This document shows, piece after piece, positions 11,633 through 53,793 of a DNA stretch of 64,000 nt. The position numbers and the translations under genes are program-made. Positions within the stretch are counted from its first letter, which is position 1. Each line of letters begins with the position of its first letter. Origin of the DNA: Burkholderiales bacterium (GTDB lineage: Bacteria; Pseudomonadota; Gammaproteobacteria; Burkholderiales; SG8-41); contig JAUXMZ010000003.1 in NCBI GenBank assembly GCA_030683105.1, positions 86,703 through 150,702 of the forward strand. The letters are read 5' to 3'. The notes under the pieces are model-generated. The model had not been told where the DNA came from. It was given only the letters and a program-made list of their open reading frames with translations, and made no database searches.

Positions 11633-11635
11633 GCT

Positions 11636-11783
11636 GGTTGTTCGTGGTTCGTTGCTCGTTGATCGTAGAATCCTAGCCTCTAACCACTTCCGAATCACCA
11701 ATCACTATTCACGAGTCACGAGCAACGAATCACGAATCACGAATCACGAACCACGAACCACGAACCACGATCCACGTTCAACG
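11636..11783. repeat. paired inverted heptamer arrays (GTTCGTG-type, then CACGAAT/CACGAAC-type)
   Basis: 11636-11669 ggttgttcgtggttcgttgctcgttgatcg, then 11693-11783 aatcaccaatcac..cacgaatcacgaatcacgaatcacgaaccacgaaccacgaacc; the two arms are complementary, so a long imperfect hairpin is possible; fills the whole gap between two + strand genes. Confidence 0.85.
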
Positions 11784-12436: not shown

Positions 12437-12550
12437 GCGTTCAAGGTTCGTTGTTCGTGATTGGTGATTGGTGATTGGTGATTGGTGATTGGTGATTGGT
12501 GGTTCGTAAACGGTGAGAGGCTAGAGTTCAACGTTCAACGATTAACGAGC
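12437..12550. repeat. heptamer array region, core GTGATTG x6 (12457-12498)
   Basis: Starts directly after the TGA stop at 12434-12436; six perfect GTGATTG units flanked by GTTCGTT/GTTCAAC-type units. Confidence 0.9.
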
Positions 12551-12689
12551 CATTTTTTTCAATAATCGCTCGACGGGTACGATCAACGTTCATGGTCCGT
12601 TTCTGCACGATCACCATCCGAGTAAGTTAAACTGACATCTTGAATACTCGCTTTCCCCGCAGGGTCGGGGGAGGCGATTATTTTAAAGG

Positions 12690-15098: not shown

Positions 15099-15220
15099 GT
15101 GCAGGTCGGAGTCGGTTCTCCCTGACACAATCGGCTGCGGGCCGGCTGAATCTGTTCATGGTGCCGGTTGCTTGTCGTACAGTCATGGGTAAAATCATGC
15201 TGACTTCAATCTGACCACAC

Positions 15221-15493
15221 ATGAAAACCATCTCTTATGCTTTCTTCGTGACCGAGGCCGAGTATCCCAGCCTGCAAGCCGCCTGCCCCGGTGATTTTCC
15301 GCCATCCTATGCGGAATTTTGCGCCAGCGTGGAGCGGAGCATTCGGGAGATGGCTGACACCGTCGCCCTCGAAAAAGTCTACGTTCGCGTCGATGAATTC
15401 CTCGCATGGTGTGCCGAAGCCAGCCTCAGGCCCAACAACATCAGCCGCACCAGATATGCCATCGTGATCGGCAACCCCTGGGCTGACTCCTAA
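15221..15493 (+). CDS. hypothetical protein (90 aa)
   Basis: ORF with host-like codon bias; no family recognised; its TAA stop overlaps the start of a heptamer array. Confidence 0.45.
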   Translation: MKTISYAFFVTEAEYPSLQAACPGDFPPSYAEFCASVERSIREMADTVALEKVYVRVDEFLAWCAEASLRPNNISRTRYAIVIGNPWADS

Positions 15494-15527
15494 TTGGTGA
15501 TTGGTGATTGGTGATTGGTGATTAATA
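15493..15527. repeat. heptamer array ATTGGTG x4 + ATTAATA
   Basis: Direct reading; overlaps the stop codon of the preceding ORF. Confidence 0.9.
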
Positions 15528-15665
15528 CCCCTCAAACGTACCCATCGCGCTGATTCATTTATTTTGCTGCGCCGCTCACCGATCCGGCGATCCGGGCGTG
15601 ATATAAAGAGCAAGGCCTTATAATCAGGACATTAATTGTCAGATTCTTAACCGCTCGAGGGTGAG

Positions 15666-17420: not shown

Positions 17421-17539
17421 GTTCAAGGTTCAAAGTTCAAGGTTCAAAGTTCAAAGTTCAAAGTTCAAGGTTCAAGGTTCAAGGTTCAAGGTTCAAGGCT
17501 CAAGGCTCAAGGCTTAAGGCTCAAGGCTCAAGGCTCACT
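17421..17539. repeat. heptamer array, 17 units (GTTCAAG/GTTCAAA then GCTCAAG variants)
   Basis: Largest array in the window; begins 8 nt after the NnrU TAG stop; the apparent ORFs with GSKFKVQ repeats are artefacts of this array. Confidence 0.95.
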
Positions 17540-23938: not shown

Positions 23939-24034
23939 GCTGGACCGTCTCCCGTCTGAATTGATCTGTCCACGTGATTGTTCGCAACGGTGCTATTGTC
24001 TCATTATCGCAAGCACTGCGAGGGAGAGAACGGG

Positions 24035-24097
24035 GTTCAAGGTTCAAGGTTCAAAGTTCAAAGTTCAAAGTTCAAAGTTCAAAGTTCAAAGTTCGGG
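24035..24097. repeat. heptamer array GTTCAAG x2, GTTCAAA x6, GTTCGGG
   Basis: Direct reading; upstream flank of the small ORF at 24223. Confidence 0.95.
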
Positions 24098-30125: not shown

Positions 30126-30230
30126 AAAGCCGTAAGCCGTAAGCGGAAGTCTCTAAGGTCTTATTCTGCTCACTGCTCACTGCTCACTGCTCACTGCTCA
30201 CTGCTCACTGCTCACTGCTCACTGCTTACC
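30126..30230. repeat. two heptamer arrays: AAGCCGT x3 (30126-30146) and GCTCACT x8 + 1 degenerate (30168-30230)
   Basis: Direct reading; begins 6 nt after the stop of the LigI-like gene (minus strand reads GTGAGCA); lies inside a putative operon. Confidence 0.95.
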
Positions 30231-46857: not shown

Positions 46858-47205
46858 ATGCGTGCCGCGTTAGCGGCGCTTAGATTCGCGCTGGCGGCGG
46901 GTATGGCGGGCGCGGCGTTGCCGGCCTGGGCCAACGACACCTACACGATAGGGATCGAGTTGTGGGACCGGCCGCGCAGTGGCAGTGTCGTCATTGAGCA
47001 TCCGGCGGTAAAGCGGGCCGTCGACGCTTATCTGGCCCGATCCGGCGCAACTCTCGTCATACACCACGCCGTGGGACAGGAGCCGTTGTTGCAGGCTGAA
47101 GAACTGCGTGCATGGCTGATCGCGCTCGCCGTCGAAACCGGGCGCGTCAGCCTTAGAAGCGGGCTGAAACCCGGCGAACCATTGAAAATAGAAGTGATGC
47201 GATGA
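46858..47205 (+). CDS. small secreted protein of unknown function
   Basis: Start set at ATG 46858 (signal peptide MRAALAALRFALAAGMAGAALPAWA/ND); the TGA stop overlaps the ATG of the next gene (ATGA), suggesting coupling. Confidence 0.5.
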   Translation: MRAALAALRFALAAGMAGAALPAWANDTYTIGIELWDRPRSGSVVIEHPAVKRAVDAYLARSGATLVIHHAVGQEPLLQAEELRAWLIALAVETGRVSLRSGLKPGEPLKIEVMR

Positions 47206-48056
47206 GCATTGAAACCAAGACAAACAAAAACGCCGGAGCTGCGCCTGCGATGTCGCGCATCGCCGCGGTGCAGATGGCTTCGGGCCCCAACATCGAGGCC
47301 AATCTCAACGAGGCGCGGCGCCTGATCGAGATCGCGGTGGAACGCGGTGCGCAACTCGTTGCGCTGCCCGAGTATTTCGGCATCATGGGCATGCGCGATG
47401 GCGACAAGGTTGCTGCGCGCGAAGAGCATGGCAAAGGCCCGATACAGGAGTTTTTGTCGAACACGGCAAAAAAACATTCGATCTGGCTGGTCGGAGGATC
47501 CGTGCCGCTGGTGTCCTCGGTAGCAACCAAGGTTCGCAACAGCTGTCTGGTGTTCGACGACAAGGGCGGACTTGCGGCGCGCTACGACAAGATTCATCTG
47601 TTCGGCTTCAAGATGGGGGAGGAGCGTTACAGTGAAGAACTCACCATCGAGCCGGGCAGCGATGTCGTTACCGTGGATACGCCCGTGGGCCGGCTTGGGT
47701 TGTCGATCTGCTATGACCTGCGTTTCCCTGAACTGTACCGCGCGATGAAGGAAGTCGACATCATCCTCGTGCCATCGGCCTTTACCGAGACCACCGGCAA
47801 GGCGCATTGGGAGACCCTGATCCGGGCGCGTGCCATCGAAAACCTGGCCTATGTGCTGGCGCCGGCGCAGGGTGGCTATCATGTGAACGGCCGCGAGACG
47901 CATGGGGACTCGATGATCGTCGATCCCTGGGGGGTGGTGATAGACCGCCTGACGCGCGGCTCCGGCGTGGTGACGGGCGGCATCAATCTCGATCATCTGC
48001 GGCGGCTGCGCCAGAGCCTGCCGGCGCTGCAGCACCGGATCCTGCATCAATGTTAA
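47202..48056 (+). CDS. carbon-nitrogen hydrolase family protein (Nit/omega-amidase-like)
   Basis: 284 aa; ALPEYF (Glu), KIHLF (Lys), LSICYDLRFPE (Cys) catalytic-triad contexts. Confidence 0.88.
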   Translation: MSIETKTNKNAGAAPAMSRIAAVQMASGPNIEANLNEARRLIEIAVERGAQLVALPEYFGIMGMRDGDKVAAREEHGKGPIQEFLSNTAKKHSIWLVGGSVPLVSSVATKVRNSCLVFDDKGGLAARYDKIHLFGFKMGEERYSEELTIEPGSDVVTVDTPVGRLGLSICYDLRFPELYRAMKEVDIILVPSAFTETTGKAHWETLIRARAIENLAYVLAPAQGGYHVNGRETHGDSMIVDPWGVVIDRLTRGSGVVTGGINLDHLRRLRQSLPALQHRILHQC

Positions 48057-48105
48057 GTTCCGGGTTCAAAGTTCCAGGTTCAAAGTTCCGCGTTCCGGGT
48101 TGAAA
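48057..48105. repeat. heptamer array GTTCCGG GTTCAAA GTTCCAG GTTCAAA GTTCCGC GTTCCGG GTTGAAA
   Basis: Begins at the base after the TAA stop of the Nit-family gene. Confidence 0.9.
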
Positions 48106-48176
48106 ACCTGCGGGCGCGCCACGATCTTTAATACTTTAACGAGCCACCAGCGCTGTCAGCCGGTGCTGGAACAATA

Positions 48177-49700
48177 ATGAAACCACAGAATAAAACCGCA
48201 ACACGAACCATTCTTCACAATACCCGCTTGACGGGTACGAATCACGAATCACGAATCACGACACACGACACATCGTTCGCGACCGCGAACGACATCCTGT
48301 TGGCGCCATACGCGCTCGACGGCAGCCGGCTGCAGTCGATATTCGGCCAGATCATGACGCACAGCGTCGATTATGCCGATCTCTATTTTCAGTACAACCG
48401 CAGCGAGTCATGGAGTCTGGAAGAAGGCATCGTCAAGTCCGGCAGCTTCAGCATCGACCAGGGCGTGGGCGTGCGGGCGATCAGCGGCGAGAAGACTGCG
48501 TTCGCCTATTCCGATGACATCAGTTTTGATGCGCTCAATACCGCGGCGCATGCCACCCGCGCCATCGCCCGCCAGGGACGCGGCGGATCGGCGCAGGTGG
48601 AGAAGCGCAACACCGGGCACAATCTGTATCTGCCGCAGGATCCACTGGCAAGCCTTGATGACCAGGACAAGGTGTCGCTGCTGGAACGGTTGGAACGCCA
48701 CGCCCGCGCACTCGACCCGCGCGTAACCCAGGTGATGGCCTTTCTGGCCGGGGAATACGAGGTGGTGCTGGTGGCGCGCAGCGATGGCGTGCTGGCGGCC
48801 GACGTGCGGCCCCTGGTGCGGCTTTCCGTTCAGGTCATCGTCGAGCACGAAGACCGGCGCGAGCAGGGCAGTGCCGGCGGCGGCGGGCGCTTCGATTACG
48901 CTTATTTCACCGATGCCATGCTGCAGGACTACGCCAGGAAAGCAGTGGACCAGGCGCTGATCAATCTCGACGCGCGGCCCGCGCCTGCGGGAACCATGAC
49001 GGTGGTGCTGGGGTCGGGCTGGCCGGGCGTGCTGCTGCATGAGGCGATAGGCCATGGCCTCGAAGGCGATTTCAACCGCAAGGGCACCTCGGCATTCAGC
49101 GGCCGCATCGGCGAGCGCGTCGCCGCACCCGGGGTCACGGTGGTTGACGACGGCACCATGGCACAGCGGCGCGGCTCGCTCAACATCGACGACGAAGGCA
49201 ACCCGACGCAGTGCAATGTGCTGATCGAAAACGGCGTGCTCAGGAGTTACCTGCAGGACAGCCTCAATGCGCGCCTGATGAAAGTGGCGCCCACCGGCAA
49301 CGGACGGCGCGAGTCGTACGCGCATATCCCCATGCCGCGCATGACCAACACCTATATGCTCAACGGCGGCAGCGATCCGCAGGAGATCATCGCCTCGGTC
49401 AAAAACGGCCTGTATGCGGTGAACTTCGGCGGCGGCCAGGTCGATATCACCAGCGGCAAGTTCGTGTTTTCGGCCTCCGAAGCCTACATGATCGAAAACG
49501 GCAAGGTGACCTATCCGGTGAAAGGCGCGACGCTGATCGGCAACGGCCCGGATGCGCTGACCCGGGTGGCGATGATAGGCAACGACATGGCGCTCGATTC
49601 CGGTGTCGGCACGTGCGGCAAGGAAGGCCAGAGCGTGCCGGTGGGCGTCGGGCAACCGACCCTGAGAATCGACGGGTTGACTGTTGGCGGCACTGTCTAG
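48177..49700 (+). CDS. tldD: metalloprotease TldD
   Basis: DYADLYFQ.., [26 protein letters not shown] motifs; the N-terminal ~30 codons are repeat-derived, so the true start is uncertain. Confidence 0.9.
48218..48273. repeat. hairpin motif CAATACCCGCTTGACGGGTAC followed by heptamers GAATCAC x3, GACACAC, GACACAT
   Basis: Motif recurs at 52604-52624 and, degenerate, at 12560-12580; lies inside the 5' end of the tldD ORF. Confidence 0.85.
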
Positions 49701-49750
49701 AAGTGCGGTGAATGGTGAAGTGCGGTAATTGGTGAATGGTGAATGGTAAA
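49701..49750. repeat. heptamer array GTGAATG/GTGAAGT/GGTAATT-type (about 7 units)
   Basis: Starts at the base after the tldD TAG stop. Confidence 0.8.
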
Positions 49751-49777
49751 AGCGGCGCTACGCTCGCCGCTTATTTA
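49750..49777 (+). terminator. hairpin AAGCGGCG-CTACGCT-CGCCGCTT followed by ATTT
   Basis: 8-bp GC-rich stem directly after the heptamer array downstream of tldD. Confidence 0.5.
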
Positions 49778-49875
49778 CTGTCTCTATTTTCAAGCCCCCG
49801 GCATCTGCCAATCTTCATCCTTTATCCTTATGGCATCCTGCTATAATGCGTTGATTTCTCAAGCTTTGGATCGAC

Positions 49876-50946
49876 ATGCACCATAAAACCGACGATATAC
49901 GCATCACCGAGATCAAGGAACTCGTACCGCCGTCGCACGTGCTCCGGGAATTTGGTTTGTCCGAAACCGCGGCGCAGACCACATTCGATACCCGGCAGGC
50001 GATACATCGCATCCTGCACGGCGCCGATGACCGGATACTGGTCATCATGGGCCCATGCTCCATCCACGACGTCAAAGCGGCCAAAGACTACGCGGCCAAA
50101 CTGAAGGAGACGAAAGACCGCCTCGCCGCCGATCTGCTGGTGGTGATGCGGGTCTATTTCGAGAAGCCGCGCACGACGGTGGGATGGAAAGGCCTCATCA
50201 ACGACCCTTTTCTCGACGGCAGTTTTCGCATCAACGAGGGCCTGCGCATCGGCCGCCAGTTGTTGCTCGAACTGAACGAATCCGGCATGCCGGTCGGCTG
50301 CGAGTTCCTCGATATGATCACGCCGCAATATCTCGCCGACCTGGTGTCATGGGGGGCGATCGGTGCGCGTACCACGGAGAGCCAGATTCATCGCGAACTC
50401 GCCTCCGGCCTGTCGTGCCCGGTCGGTTTCAAAAACGGCACCGACGGCAATATCAAGATCGCGGTGGATGCCATCCGCGCGGCTCAGGCGCCGCACCATT
50501 TCCTGTCGGTGACCAAGGCCGGGCATTCGGCCATAGTCTCGACCAGCGGCAACGAAGATTGCCACGTCATTTTACGCGGCGGCAAGAACACGAATTTTGA
50601 TGCGGCCAGCGTTGATGCCGCGGCCAGGGAGTTGGCGACAGCCGGCGTGCCGGCGCGGCTCATGATCGATTTCAGCCACGCCAACAGCAGCAAAAATCCG
50701 CAGAAACAGATCGATGTCGGCCACGACGTCGGGCGCCAGGTCGGGGGCGGTGAAGACCGCATATTTGGTGTCATGGTGGAAAGCCACCTCAAGCCGGGCC
50801 GCCAGGATCTGGTGCCCGGCAAAGAACTGGTGTACGGTCAGAGTATCACCGATGGGTGCATCGGTTGGGAGGACAGCCGTGCCCTGCTCGACAATCTGGC
50901 TGATGCCGTGCGCAAGCGCCGGCTCAAGGCAGGGGCCGGGCAGTAA
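49876..50946 (+). CDS. aroG: class I 3-deoxy-7-phosphoheptulonate (DAHP) synthase
   Basis: 356 aa; ILVIMGPCSIHD, KPRTTVGWKGLINDP motifs; isoenzyme specificity not determinable. Confidence 0.9.
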   Translation: MHHKTDDIRITEIKELVPPSHVLREFGLSETAAQTTFDTRQAIHRILHGADDRILVIMGPCSIHDVKAAKDYAAKLKETKDRLAADLLVVMRVYFEKPRTTVGWKGLINDPFLDGSFRINEGLRIGRQLLLELNESGMPVGCEFLDMITPQYLADLVSWGAIGARTTESQIHRELASGLSCPVGFKNGTDGNIKIAVDAIRAAQAPHHFLSVTKAGHSAIVSTSGNEDCHVILRGGKNTNFDAASVDAAARELATAGVPARLMIDFSHANSSKNPQKQIDVGHDVGRQVGGGEDRIFGVMVESHLKPGRQDLVPGKELVYGQSITDGCIGWEDSRALLDNLADAVRKRRLKAGAGQ

Positions 50947-51635: not shown

Positions 51636-52550
51636 TTGCGCTGTGCAGCGTTGGCCGTGGGGGCGTTGCTGCTGATGCAGAATGTGACCGCGGCGGCGGC
51701 GGTGTCGCTCACCGATGATCGCGGCCGGACACTGGTGCTTGCCGCGCCGGCGCAGCGCGTCGTCACGCTCGCACCCCATCTCGCCGAGATCGTATTTGCC
51801 GCCGGCGCCGGCGGGCGGCTGGCCGGGGTTGCGCGCTTCAGTGATTTTCCTGAAGCCGTCATGCACTTGCCGCAGGTGGGCGACGGTGCGCGCGTCGATC
51901 TGGAGCGCATCATTGCGCTTAAGCCCGATCTCATCCTGGCGTGGCAAAGCGGCAATCAGGCGGCGGATATTGAGCGCCTCGAGAAACTCGGTTTTCCCGT
52001 GTTCGTCACCGAACCCGCGCGCCTGATGGACATTCCGCGCCTGCTGCGGGCAGTCGGTGTGTTGGCCGGCACGCTGCCAGCCGCAGAACAGGTCATTGAT
52101 AAATATATAAATAATATTAAAGAGTTACGAAATTCGTATGGTGGGCACCCAGCGTTGCGCGTGTTCTACGAGATCTGGCACCGTCCGCTGCTGACCGTGA
52201 ACGGCAGTCACATCATCAGCGACGTGCTGGCGTTGTGCGGCGGACGCAACGTGTTCGCCGCCGCACCGGTGCAGACGCCGACGGTGTCCATCGAAGCGGT
52301 GCTGGCGGCACAGCCCGATGTCATAGTCGGTGGCGGCTCTGCGGTCGCGGCAGACGAATTCGCCGCGCAGTGGCGCGCATCCCCGATTCCGGCGTTGCGC
52401 GAACTGCCGGTGTTTTATGTCGATCCCGATACCATCCAGCGGCAGACGCCGCGGATTGTGGAGGGGGCGAGAACGATCTGCGAGGCGCTGGAAAAAGTCA
52501 GGGTTAGCCGCCAAGGCCGCCAAGAAAAAACTGATCGAAACCGCAGATAA
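51636..52550 (+). CDS. cobalamin-binding periplasmic protein (BtuF-like)
   Basis: 304 aa; ..RVVTLAPHLAEIVFAAG....LKPDLILAW.. class III SBP pattern; TTG start is tentative; the last ~15 codons (VSRQGRQEKTDRNRR) are encoded by a repeat element. Confidence 0.7.
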   Translation: MRCAALAVGALLLMQNVTAAAAVSLTDDRGRTLVLAAPAQRVVTLAPHLAEIVFAAGAGGRLAGVARFSDFPEAVMHLPQVGDGARVDLERIIALKPDLILAWQSGNQAADIERLEKLGFPVFVTEPARLMDIPRLLRAVGVLAGTLPAAEQVIDKYINNIKELRNSYGGHPALRVFYEIWHRPLLTVNGSHIISDVLALCGGRNVFAAAPVQTPTVSIEAVLAAQPDVIVGGGSAVAADEFAAQWRASPIPALRELPVFYVDPDTIQRQTPRIVEGARTICEALEKVRVSRQGRQEKTDRNRR

Positions 52551-52762
52551 ACGCGGATACACACAGATAAAGTCAAAAACAATCAGCCACAGAGGATTCA
52601 CTTCAATACCCGCTTGACGGGTACACAGAGGGAATATAAAAAAGTCGAATCACGACTCGCGATTCACGGCATTTCGGAACCGCCAAGGCGCCAAGTCGCC
52701 AAGAAAAACTGATTGAAACCGCAGATGAGCGCCGATGAACGCGGATAGGCATGCAGGGTGTG
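52507..52762. repeat. composite repeat: two direct copies of a CCGCCAAGG..AAACCGCAGAT..CGCGGATA element flanking the TACCCG hairpin motif
   Basis: Copy A 52507-52560, copy B 52679-52762; the CCGCCAAGGCGCCAAG core recurs inverted at 54158-54174, and the GGATAGGC..ATGCAGGGTGTG tail recurs at 54883-54908. Confidence 0.8.
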
Positions 52763-52824
52763 CTTGCTGAACCGGTCACCAGTCACGAATCCCCAATTAT
52801 TGAAAACCAATCCACGCGTCACTT

Positions 52825-53793
52825 TCAGTAAAGTTCGGCAAGCAATTGCTCCAGGGCTGCCCGGCGCTCCGGTGGCGTTGGGGCAAGCAGGCCTTGCTGT
52901 TGCAGTATCGCCAGCAGCTTGCGCGGGGCGATTTCCTTGTTGCCGACGATCTCGACGTGTCCGGCCTCGACTTCGATGTTGACCAGTTGCGGATAGTTGT
53001 CGACGACCGGATGGTATTGCTCGGCGAGGCTGAAGATGTAATCGCTCTCGAGACAGGTTCCGTTCGCGCTTTTGCGGCGACAGGTATCGCGCTCATCCGT
53101 GACGACCTTGAGGTATCGCCGCACCGAGGAAAGCAACGGTCCCGGGTGCCGGATGAAATTCGACGTCGAGGTGATCTCATGCCAGTTGTCGCCGGTCACG
53201 ATCCAGCATATTCCGGGGACCGCACCCAGGCTCAGCCAGTTCAGCAGGCTGGAGCCACAAGGATTGGCGGCCTGGATGCCGGCCAATGGCGCTGAAATGG
53301 TAGCGAGTTTTATGCTTGCCTCATTCCGTAGCCACTCACCGCGGCGGTCGCGCTCCATCGCCTTGCGCGCCACCAGGCCACCCATGCTGTGCCCGATGAC
53401 GGTGAGGTCGTGGTCACGTATGTTGCTGGCCAGTTCATCGAGCGCCGAGATCAGCTGGCCCGAGCTGAGAACCAGGCTTTCACGATCGTCGTAGCTGAAG
53501 CAGACGGCCTGCTGTCCATGGAATGCATACAACTGCGCCAGCGAACGAAACCGGCCGGCCGAGCCATTGCAGCCATGCACCAGGACGGTCACCGGGTAGT
53601 TCGTGTTCAGATGCAGCGTGCGATCCGGAGAGTCGGTGCATGGCCTCAGATGCGGCACATTCAGGGCCGCATTCGGAGGCGGCAGGCGACCGGGCTCCAG
53701 GGGTTGCGGCTCCGGCACATACTGGGGTGAAATCACGCATCCGGCCAATGTAACCAGGATGGAAATGATGAACAAGGCTGAAGAAGGGCTCAT
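52825..53793 (-). CDS. lipoprotein, alpha/beta-hydrolase (lipase/esterase, PGAP1-like)
   Basis: Lipobox LAGC at residues 16-19; nucleophile elbow GHSMGG; 322 aa. Confidence 0.75.
   Translation of the reverse strand: MSPSSALFIISILVTLAGCVISPQYVPEPQPLEPGRLPPPNAALNVPHLRPCTDSPDRTLHLNTNYPVTVLVHGCNGSAGRFRSLAQLYAFHGQQAVCFSYDDRESLVLSSGQLISALDELASNIRDHDLTVIGHSMGGLVARKAMERDRRGEWLRNEASIKLATISAPLAGIQAANPCGSSLLNWLSLGAVPGICWIVTGDNWHEITSTSNFIRHPGPLLSSVRRYLKVVTDERDTCRRKSANGTCLESDYIFSLAEQYHPVVDNYPQLVNIEVEAGHVEIVGNKEIAPRKLLAILQQQGLLAPTPPERRAALEQLLAELY

Follow-up and report, generated by a model that had tools for sequence, protein, structure and literature searches.

A stretch of 64,000 nucleotides (nt) from a Burkholderiales bacterium (GenBank assembly GCA_030683105.1, contig JAUXMZ010000003.1, positions 86,703 to 150,702; here called the window, whose own numbering is used throughout) carries a gene for the metalloprotease TldD whose first codons consist of repeat DNA. 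We consider it likely that this gene, tldD (48177..49700, plus strand, 507 aa), starts at the ATG at 48177 and that its product opens with a hypervariable tail of 32 codons (48177..48272) that is translated, derives from repeats and carries a miniature insertion element. Three lines of evidence mark out the tail: the reading frame kept among relatives, the pattern of codon differences, and the alignment with Escherichia coli TldD.

By homology, the product of the open reading frame (ORF) is a bona fide TldD of the PmbA/TldD family. Three PmbA_TldD domains (Pfam PF01523, PF19290 and PF19289) are found on P0001, a protein identical to the window TldD; residues 28-506 match E. coli TldD (5NJ5) with E = 2.3e-189, and the HExxxH zinc-binding motif aligns with HEAVGHGLEGD of the E. 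coli protein. Met1 of E. coli TldD is the alignment partner of Thr32 in the window protein, and the N-terminal extension therefore amounts to 31 residues. An in-frame TAA at 48129-48131 precedes the ORF, and the first ATG, GTG or TTG after it is the ATG at 48177. The original prediction, made from the letters of the window, had described this codon as the sole in-frame ATG upstream of a repeat module and had found no ATG or GTG between it and the conserved body; coordinates, ORF and in-frame codons agree on both counts, the lone TTG in that interval being at 48228. Conserved TldD sequence does follow the module, as had been proposed, but by the E. coli alignment its onset is SFATAN at 48273 and not about 48290; a second TTG, at 48300, falls within the conserved body.

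The module itself is composite: a 27-nt hairpin element sits inside a seven-unit heptamer array of the CGNANCA type (48197-48272). The left part of the array (CGCAACA CGAACC, 48197..48209) is interrupted by the element ATTCTTCACAATACCCGCTTGACGGGT (48210..48236), which is followed by the right part (A, then CGAATCA x3 and CGACACA x2, 48237..48272). Deleting 48210-48236 in silico brings the two parts into perfect register, CGCAACA CGAACCA CGAATCA x3 CGACACA x2. The pieces named earlier, CAATACCCGCTTGACGGGTAC at 48218-48238 and then GAATCAC x3 (48239-48259), GACACAC and GACACAT (48260-48273), are all present where they had been placed. The 21-mer forms a hairpin with a 6-bp stem, TACCCG (48221-26) with CGGGTA (48232-37), and the loop CTTGA; it spans 48221-48237, and its closing A (48237) is part of the flanking array, not of the element. 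The limits of the element agree with a second copy in a close relative (below), with its dispersal and with its fold. Dimers of the GAATCAC type give 24 matches against 0.43 expected. The encoded tail is polar (9 Thr, 3 Asn, 3 His, 3 Arg) and has no hydrophobic stretch.

The closest relatives used for DNA comparison (individual sequences are cited by handles in L, proteins by handles in P) have 92-95% protein identity over the aligned region. In six genomes a block of 77-78 nt that begins with GTTGAAA and ends directly before the ATG (78 nt in the window, 48099..48176) is conserved and aligns almost without gaps; on the strength of that conservation it presumably comprises the promoter and 5' untranslated region (UTR). 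The start that follows it, ATG AAR CCA CAG AAY AAA, is kept without length change in the same number of genomes. Behind this start the tails diverge in length. The distance from the ATG to the Phe codon of the body is 99 nt in the window, L212, L213 and L081, 126 in L211, 93 in L082, 135 in L083, 177 in L084 and 51 in L087: six distinct lengths from 51 to 177 nt, each divisible by 3 and free of stops. Tails thus range from 16 to 58 codons among the sequences compared, with the ATG always in frame with the body. In L082-L084 the tail is a different array, (GGAACAT TGAACCC GGAACGC)n, whose 21-nt super-units of heptamers are translated GTLNPER. The unit has a TGA in one of its two alternative frames, and these sister arrays differ in 42-nt steps only, that is, in multiples of 21.

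A second heptamer array on the other side of the conserved block provides a comparison. This non-coding array (GTTCNNN x6, 48057..48098) fills the space from the stop of a CN-hydrolase gene to the block, and in the window and five relatives it measures 42, 28, 70, 126, 105 and 40 nt. Five of these six lengths are exact multiples of 7; modulo 3 they give 0, 1, 1, 0, 0 and 1, and there is therefore no reading-frame constraint on that array. The array after the ATG alone obeys the frame, which is the signature of translation. The original prediction had offered a repeat-encoded N-terminal extension starting at 48177 as one of two options and had pointed to alignment with the TldD of relatives; that alignment, with start and upstream block conserved, an equivalent ATG in frame in every relative and tails of differing length behind it, upholds the extension.

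The other option was a non-canonical start, with the module as a structured 5' leader: initiation at TTG 48228, ATC 48255, CTG 48297 or TTG 48300 would leave element and heptamers untranslated. Elsewhere the element, together with short repeats, often lies just before start codons (in L126 before a xerD-like gene, in L137 before an apaH-like gene, and in L135), and the Shine-Dalgarno match at 48177 is weak, both of which a leader would accommodate. The candidate codons themselves speak against it. L081 has TTA and CTT in place of CTG 48297 and TTG 48300, and both positions lie downstream of the F-A-T-A codons, which in 28 sequences differ at third positions only, so that initiation must lie upstream of 48273. 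TTG 48228, which has no Shine-Dalgarno sequence before it, is simply a piece of the dispersed element, and a hand count in other element copies placed this codon outside the frame of the gene that starts nearby. Had the spacer been untranslated, its six lengths should not all be divisible by 3 when those of the adjacent array are not, and a search of 47000-50000 against Rfam at E <= 1 found no relevant family, only one spurious match to a eukaryotic small Cajal body-specific RNA (scaRNA). We regard a leader as very unlikely, and the codon changes in L081, the translation of FATA and the frame rule lead us to set the non-canonical start aside in favor of ATG 48177. MKP is also widespread as the N-terminus of more distant relatives, for example MKPENRQETRxLERETSFATAN and MKPANIFETAS, and MKP is therefore the ancestral N-terminus, behind which the repeats grew.

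The prediction had also raised a phase-variable switch, in which slippage by one GAATCAC unit would put ATG 48177 out of frame and reversibly silence TldD. Three perfect GAATCAC units do stand between start and body, the frame would shift with a gain or loss of 7 nt, and tldD is not essential in E. coli. Heptamer tracts, moreover, drive phase variation of the HMW adhesins of Haemophilus influenzae (PMC12721329, PMC8262952). The tract, however, has only those three perfect units, and the heptamer count is equal in the window, L211, L212, L213 and L081, which come from different samples; in L081 the units read GAATCAC GAGTCAC GAACCAC, with no two adjacent ones alike, and would not slip easily. 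Every length observed among the relatives examined keeps the frame. Frameshifted tldD alleles were sought among the short or non-ATG gene calls (P0004, P0005, P0091 and P0068) and none was found, the conserved ATG or GTG being in frame; P0004, P0005 and P0091 are short only through truncation by the gene caller, and their ORFs are in frame from the conserved start. Like arrays also fill most intergenic regions of the window, as a genome-wide feature rather than a device of this locus. With an equal count in five sequences, diverged units in L081 and no out-of-frame variant among the sequences compared, a frame-flipping switch is not supported, and we give it a very small chance. Gene callers in the clade place the start of tldD variously, at a TTG or an internal ATG inside the array or past FATAN.

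That disagreement among gene callers, and the ease with which short repeats misassemble, could suggest an artefact of assembly or annotation in a repeat-rich metagenome-assembled genome. The 99-nt tail is nevertheless found in independent NCBI and JGI assemblies (the window, L212 and L213) and, diverged, in L081, and the repeats are far shorter than the read length. An artefact is hardly credible.

The translated tail shows a lack of constraint on its amino acids. At the DNA level the window shares 89.5% identity with L081; the tldD bodies of the two differ by 107 synonymous and 26 nonsynonymous codons, and their tails by 2 synonymous and 7 nonsynonymous codons with no insertion or deletion. 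Tail amino acids are therefore not under purifying selection, and as judged from these codons selection on the tail is limited to the reading frame and the absence of stops. From this we infer that the tail is functionally neutral.

A contrary proposal is that the hairpin or the tail is functional and under selection, through mRNA stability, translation pausing or a regulatory or interaction tail, which would be compatible with a start at ATG 48177. The element lies inside a 44-nt run that is identical in the window and L081 despite an overall divergence of 10.5%; a second conserved hairpin, with covariation, occurs at the SFATAN codons; and inverted arrays flank the start in sister genomes and fold with z = -10. 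On the other side, the element is missing here from relatives whose aligned bodies are about 95% identical, and their tails are quite different, with lengths in the range given above; the amino acids of the tail show no constraint; in intergenic DNA the element is found in every orientation, as selfish DNA would be; and its identity between the two genomes is explicable by recent spread or by conversion among copies. We consider a selected function unlikely and prefer a neutral tail translated from ATG 48177.

The structures just mentioned were observed as follows. Where conserved TldD sequence begins, the codons for SFATAND make up an 8-bp hairpin, TCGTTCGC-GACC-GCGAACGA (48273..48292, plus strand), recognized by its pairing in relatives: 80% of cells are paired in 28 sequences, against 34-43% with the partner slid. 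Compensatory changes occur in it, among them a synonymous TTT/GCA pair in L001; amino-acid conservation confounds the pairing test. The upstream (GTTCNNN)n and translated (GGAACNN)n arrays of L082-L084 are reverse complements of each other, and together they fold, with conserved block and start codon enclosed, as a single giant stem (-164.7 kcal/mol, z = -10; L083:150-520). The corresponding effect in the window, 48057-48098 against 48197-48272, is weak (z = -2.3), and further neighboring arrays of the window can likewise be paired in inverted orientation (11633-11666 with 11691-11776). A hairpin at 48146-48169, upstream of the ATG, was considered and dropped: it is not conserved, since L212 lacks part of it and its pairing is broken in L081 and L083.

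Several points weigh against our reading of the tail. The argument for its translation is one of sequence comparison, made with metagenome assemblies throughout, and the contig of L211 is only 1,022 nt long. The Shine-Dalgarno candidate, CTGGAA at 6-8 nt before ATG 48177, is a weak match, and a scan of 47900-48450 gave no consensus sigma-70 promoter; taking this genome by itself, TTG 48228 in the hairpin loop may serve as a start. An AlphaFold2 model from a 31-sequence alignment has a mean predicted local distance difference test score (pLDDT) of 43 and is poor as a whole, so it is uninformative on disorder of the tail. Pure neutrality, finally, does not explain the 44-nt identical run, which may reflect recent conversion among copies or a constraint at the nucleotide level.

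The 27-nt element is not confined to tldD. Within the 64 kb of the window its 21-mer CAATACCCGCTTGACGGGTAC has two exact occurrences and one with 3 mismatches, against 0 expected; those beyond tldD are an exact copy at 52604 and the 3-mismatch copy at 12560. Both were located by motif search. The second copy of the element, ATTCACTTCAATACCCGCTTGACGGGT (52596..52622, plus strand), lies between convergent genes in a 9-nt repeat of the CACAGAGGA type; the third, the degenerate ATTTTTTTCAATAATCGCTCGACGGGT (12552..12578, plus strand), lies in a GNTNAAC heptamer array. Deletion of 52596-52622 in silico restores the 9-nt array, and deletion of 12552-12578 leaves GTTCAAC GTTCAAC GATTAAC GAGCCAC GATCAAC GTTCATG, so that tandem register is restored in all three window copies.

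Close relatives reveal insertion polymorphism. P0121, a partial protein in the cluster of the window TldD, has nine extra tail residues, and its DNA is L211, from another metagenome-assembled genome. Near the site, L211 differs from the window by two substitutions, one of which replaces GGGTAC by GGGTCC in the first element copy, and by an exact 27-nt insertion of ATTCTTCACAATACCCGCTTGACGGGT, a second element copy one heptamer downstream of the first, with the frame kept. The number of copies at tldD is accordingly 0 in L082-L087, 1 in the window, L212, L213 and L081, and 2 in L211. The sister strain represented by L212 and L213 lacks the 52596 copy in the same intergenic region. The element comes without a target-site duplication, as the heptamer count of L211 is unchanged, and without terminal inverted repeats, having a central 6-bp stem only; on these two grounds it was rejected as a miniature inverted-repeat transposable element (MITE). 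Frames 0 and 2 of the element are open, and frame 1 contains a TGA. The two open frames are those used, giving ILHNTRLTG in the window and SSQYPLDG in the second L211 copy. The protein stays intact because the element is 27 nt long and free of stops in the frame used.

A scan of metagenomes for the motif found it on at least 120 contigs, and analyses were made on 113 distinct instances, or on 127 for gene context. Among the 113 listed instances the consensus is ATTCTTTT-CAATACCCGCTTGACGGGTAC; 27 are nested forms, and 48 have identical 6-mer flanks on both sides, against 6.7 expected. When 27-29 nt are deleted at the motif, tandem register returns in 26-49 of them, according to where the boundaries are set; with the boundaries of the window element the figure is 26, and with shifted boundaries it is about 5 or fewer. 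By a crude ORF map, some 98 of the 127 listed instances are intergenic, in every arrangement of flanking genes, and the element is therefore not a promoter or 5'-UTR device. The TTGACG in the motif had been entertained as a promoter and was rejected: no sigma-70-like site was found at 47900-48450 or 52400-52900, and the motif turns up in each orientation, also between convergent genes. Contigs with the element have a median G+C of 60.9%, as in the window, and a few of those listed carry orthologues of window genes at 57-80% identity, with many carrying Bug-type paralogues. The shared G+C and the orthologues place the element family in a clade of uncultured Burkholderiales. No second convincing copy in coding sequence was found among the scanned instances, the frames that cover the motif being ORF edges, short doubtful ORFs or 5' UTRs. 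A literature search gave no match to the motif sequence.

Some further copies deserve description. In L097 (Ga0113563_10324213) the motif at 1546-1566 on the minus strand is a candidate for a second copy in the 5' end of a gene, with an ATG 13 codons upstream and no ATG or GTG for 187 codons after it. L132 (8900-9000), L139, L124 and L154 hold nested or multimeric forms, in which tandem left halves TTCTTCACAATACC are followed by a matching number of right halves GCTTGACGGGTAC; these half-repeats would fold as long multi-stem hairpins. In the window, 15490-15545 on the minus strand holds a remnant, GGGTACGTTTGAGGGGTAT, that resembles a nested element's right arms; CAATCAC x4 and then a Shine-Dalgarno-like TTAGGAG come after it, and the remnant lies within a doubtful 135-aa ORF (15206-15613). 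The second window copy stands between two direct repeats of about 55 nt (52507-52748; GCCGCCAAGG...AAACTGATYGAAACCGCAGAT...CGCGGATA), which are built of tandem units of 8, 9 and 10 nt. A terminator-like hairpin lies at 52646-52666 on the minus strand, and in L212 and L213 the arrangement of the 52507-52748 region is different and element-free.

These observations suggest a history for the tail. From an ancestral N-terminus M-K-P...F-A-T-A, a heptamer array would have grown just past codon 6 or so in a heptamer-rich clade of uncultured Burkholderiales, taking the form (GGAACAT TGAACCC GGAACGC)n in the sisters and a CGAAYCA type in the lineage of the window. The 27-nt hairpin element, from a dispersed family that lands in short tandem arrays, would then have inserted after CGAACC. 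Slippage would lengthen and shorten heptamer arrays, and in coding DNA only changes in multiples of 3 (21 nt) would survive. With selection acting on frame and stop absence alone, tail length would move in multiples of 3 while the sequence became hypervariable, and its position ahead of the structured part of TldD would be why the tail is tolerated. The hairpin unit would be a selfish, very small mobile element that prefers short tandem arrays. How it moves we infer, and only tentatively, at somewhat less than even chances, do we offer a further view of the 27-29-nt unit ATTCTTYW-CAATACCCGCTYGACGGGT: that uncultured Burkholderiales harbor in it a very small mobile element, active and so far undescribed, which inserts precisely into short tandem arrays without target duplication and supplies, along with the heptamer arrays, new coding sequence.

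Heptamer repeats are abundant around tldD. Tandem Repeats Finder reported about 35 rows of period 7, 14 or 21 in the window, and a stricter period-7 scan gave 14 arrays; apart from that of tldD, all of these fall in intergenic DNA, at the edges of ORFs or in short ORFs of doubtful standing. Two main unit families are seen, GTTCAAR/GTTCCGG and CGAAYCA (complement GTGATTG). Arrays of 7 nt extend from 4311 to 54282, nearly all of them between genes, and include further unit families, CTGCTCA, AAGCGGT and GTGAAGG; examples lie at 11691-11776, 12457-12501, 17421-17537, 24034-24094 and 30166-30226, the longest having about 17 units. At the other end of tldD, a tandem array of GGTGAAT-like units runs from the stop codon (49700..49747, plus strand), and its unit and length differ among relatives. 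Beyond it, a strongly conserved block, TCCTGCTATAATGCGTTGATTTCTCAAGCTTTGGA (49833-49875), precedes a DAHP synthase gene and is probably its promoter.

For annotation, the comparison sets the start of tldD at the conserved MKP codon in a clade where gene callers differ by up to about 50 codons, and it makes clear that repeat DNA can legitimately sit inside a housekeeping ORF. The locus also sets two adjacent heptamer arrays side by side, one non-coding that drifts by 7 nt and one coding that is held to multiples of 3; in this contrast, selection is seen filtering the products of slippage. In addition, sequences that are otherwise nearly the same show a 27-nt element in zero, one and two copies, and both its boundaries and its target are exactly defined. 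If the mobile-element reading is true, the family would be a betaproteobacterial counterpart of the small dispersed repeats (SDRs) of cyanobacteria, with a natural insertion series at tldD, and a second lineage of very small dispersed repeats, accessible in metagenomes, could help the study of their movement. The value lies mainly in small mobile DNA and repeat-driven protein evolution; tldD itself is ordinary once explained, and the finding does not indicate a new regulatory switch on TldD.

Set beside known systems, the tldD tail and its element fit known kinds and are neither a new type of system nor a regulatory switch. Heptameric repeats are enriched in the intergenic DNA of Burkholderia, Xanthomonas, Nostoc and Beggiatoaceae and are poorly understood (PMC4692102, PMC4679880). 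Like the intergenic repeats described there (the short tandemly repeated repetitive sequences, STRR, of cyanobacteria, GGGAATC/GGGGAYT of Xanthomonas and Nostoc, and TAACTGA of Beggiatoaceae), those of the window form many mostly intergenic 7-nt arrays that differ by 7-nt steps between close relatives. Unlike them, the tldD array is translated, inside a conserved gene after its start codon; the units are GTTCAAR and CGAAYCA, and the host is an uncultured betaproteobacterium. Simple sequence repeat (SSR) contingency loci such as the HMW heptamer tracts of H. influenzae likewise place a short tandem repeat between expression signals and gene body (PMC12721329), but at tldD no copy-number polymorphism was seen in the heptamer tract, which is short and degenerate in relatives, the gene encodes a housekeeping protease of the cytoplasm, and no observed length breaks the frame. 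Borg elements contain rapidly evolving in-frame tandem repeats in ORFs, which add low-complexity or disordered protein regions (PMC9879509). The tldD repeats resemble these in changing fast within an ORF, in being bound to the frame and in adding low-complexity sequence; they differ in that units of 7 nt allow only three-unit (21-nt) steps and in having a bacterial chromosome as host, and no disorder of the tail is claimed.

As for the element, the REP, BIME and REPIN sequences that RAYT (Y1) transposases mobilize are short dispersed palindromes, mostly extragenic (PMC3116915), and the tldD element is likewise short, dispersed, palindromic and mostly extragenic. In place of inverted REP doublets of the REPIN kind, its instances are mostly single hairpins in tandem arrays, with some nested multi-arm forms, and one copy is genic. 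The palindromic elements of Rickettsia (RPEs) are selfish palindromic repeats that lie in frame in housekeeping genes and are translated (PMC10969869), and the tldD element, too, is in frame in a housekeeping gene and read as protein. RPEs, by contrast, measure about 100-150 bp and encode a conserved peptide, whereas the tldD element has 27 nt, lies at the extreme N-terminus and uses two frames.

The closest likeness in form is to the SDRs of Nostoc and other cyanobacteria. Those of Nostoc are said to be 21-27 nt long, to form hairpins, to lie in heptamer arrays, to nest within one another and possibly to be mobile. To our knowledge, most descriptions of very small dispersed repeats come from cyanobacteria, and we know of no mechanism for their movement. 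The tldD element, at 27-29 nt, is likewise a tiny dispersed hairpin, found in tandem arrays or nested, with presence or absence at orthologous sites, as is reported of SDRs. The cyanobacterial work (Elhai et al. 2008, Genome Res 18:1484) is cited by PMC3116915 and PMC2884548. The tldD element comes from another phylum and has another sequence, and since SDR families are defined by sequence, membership in one of them is unlikely and the element is better regarded as their analogue.

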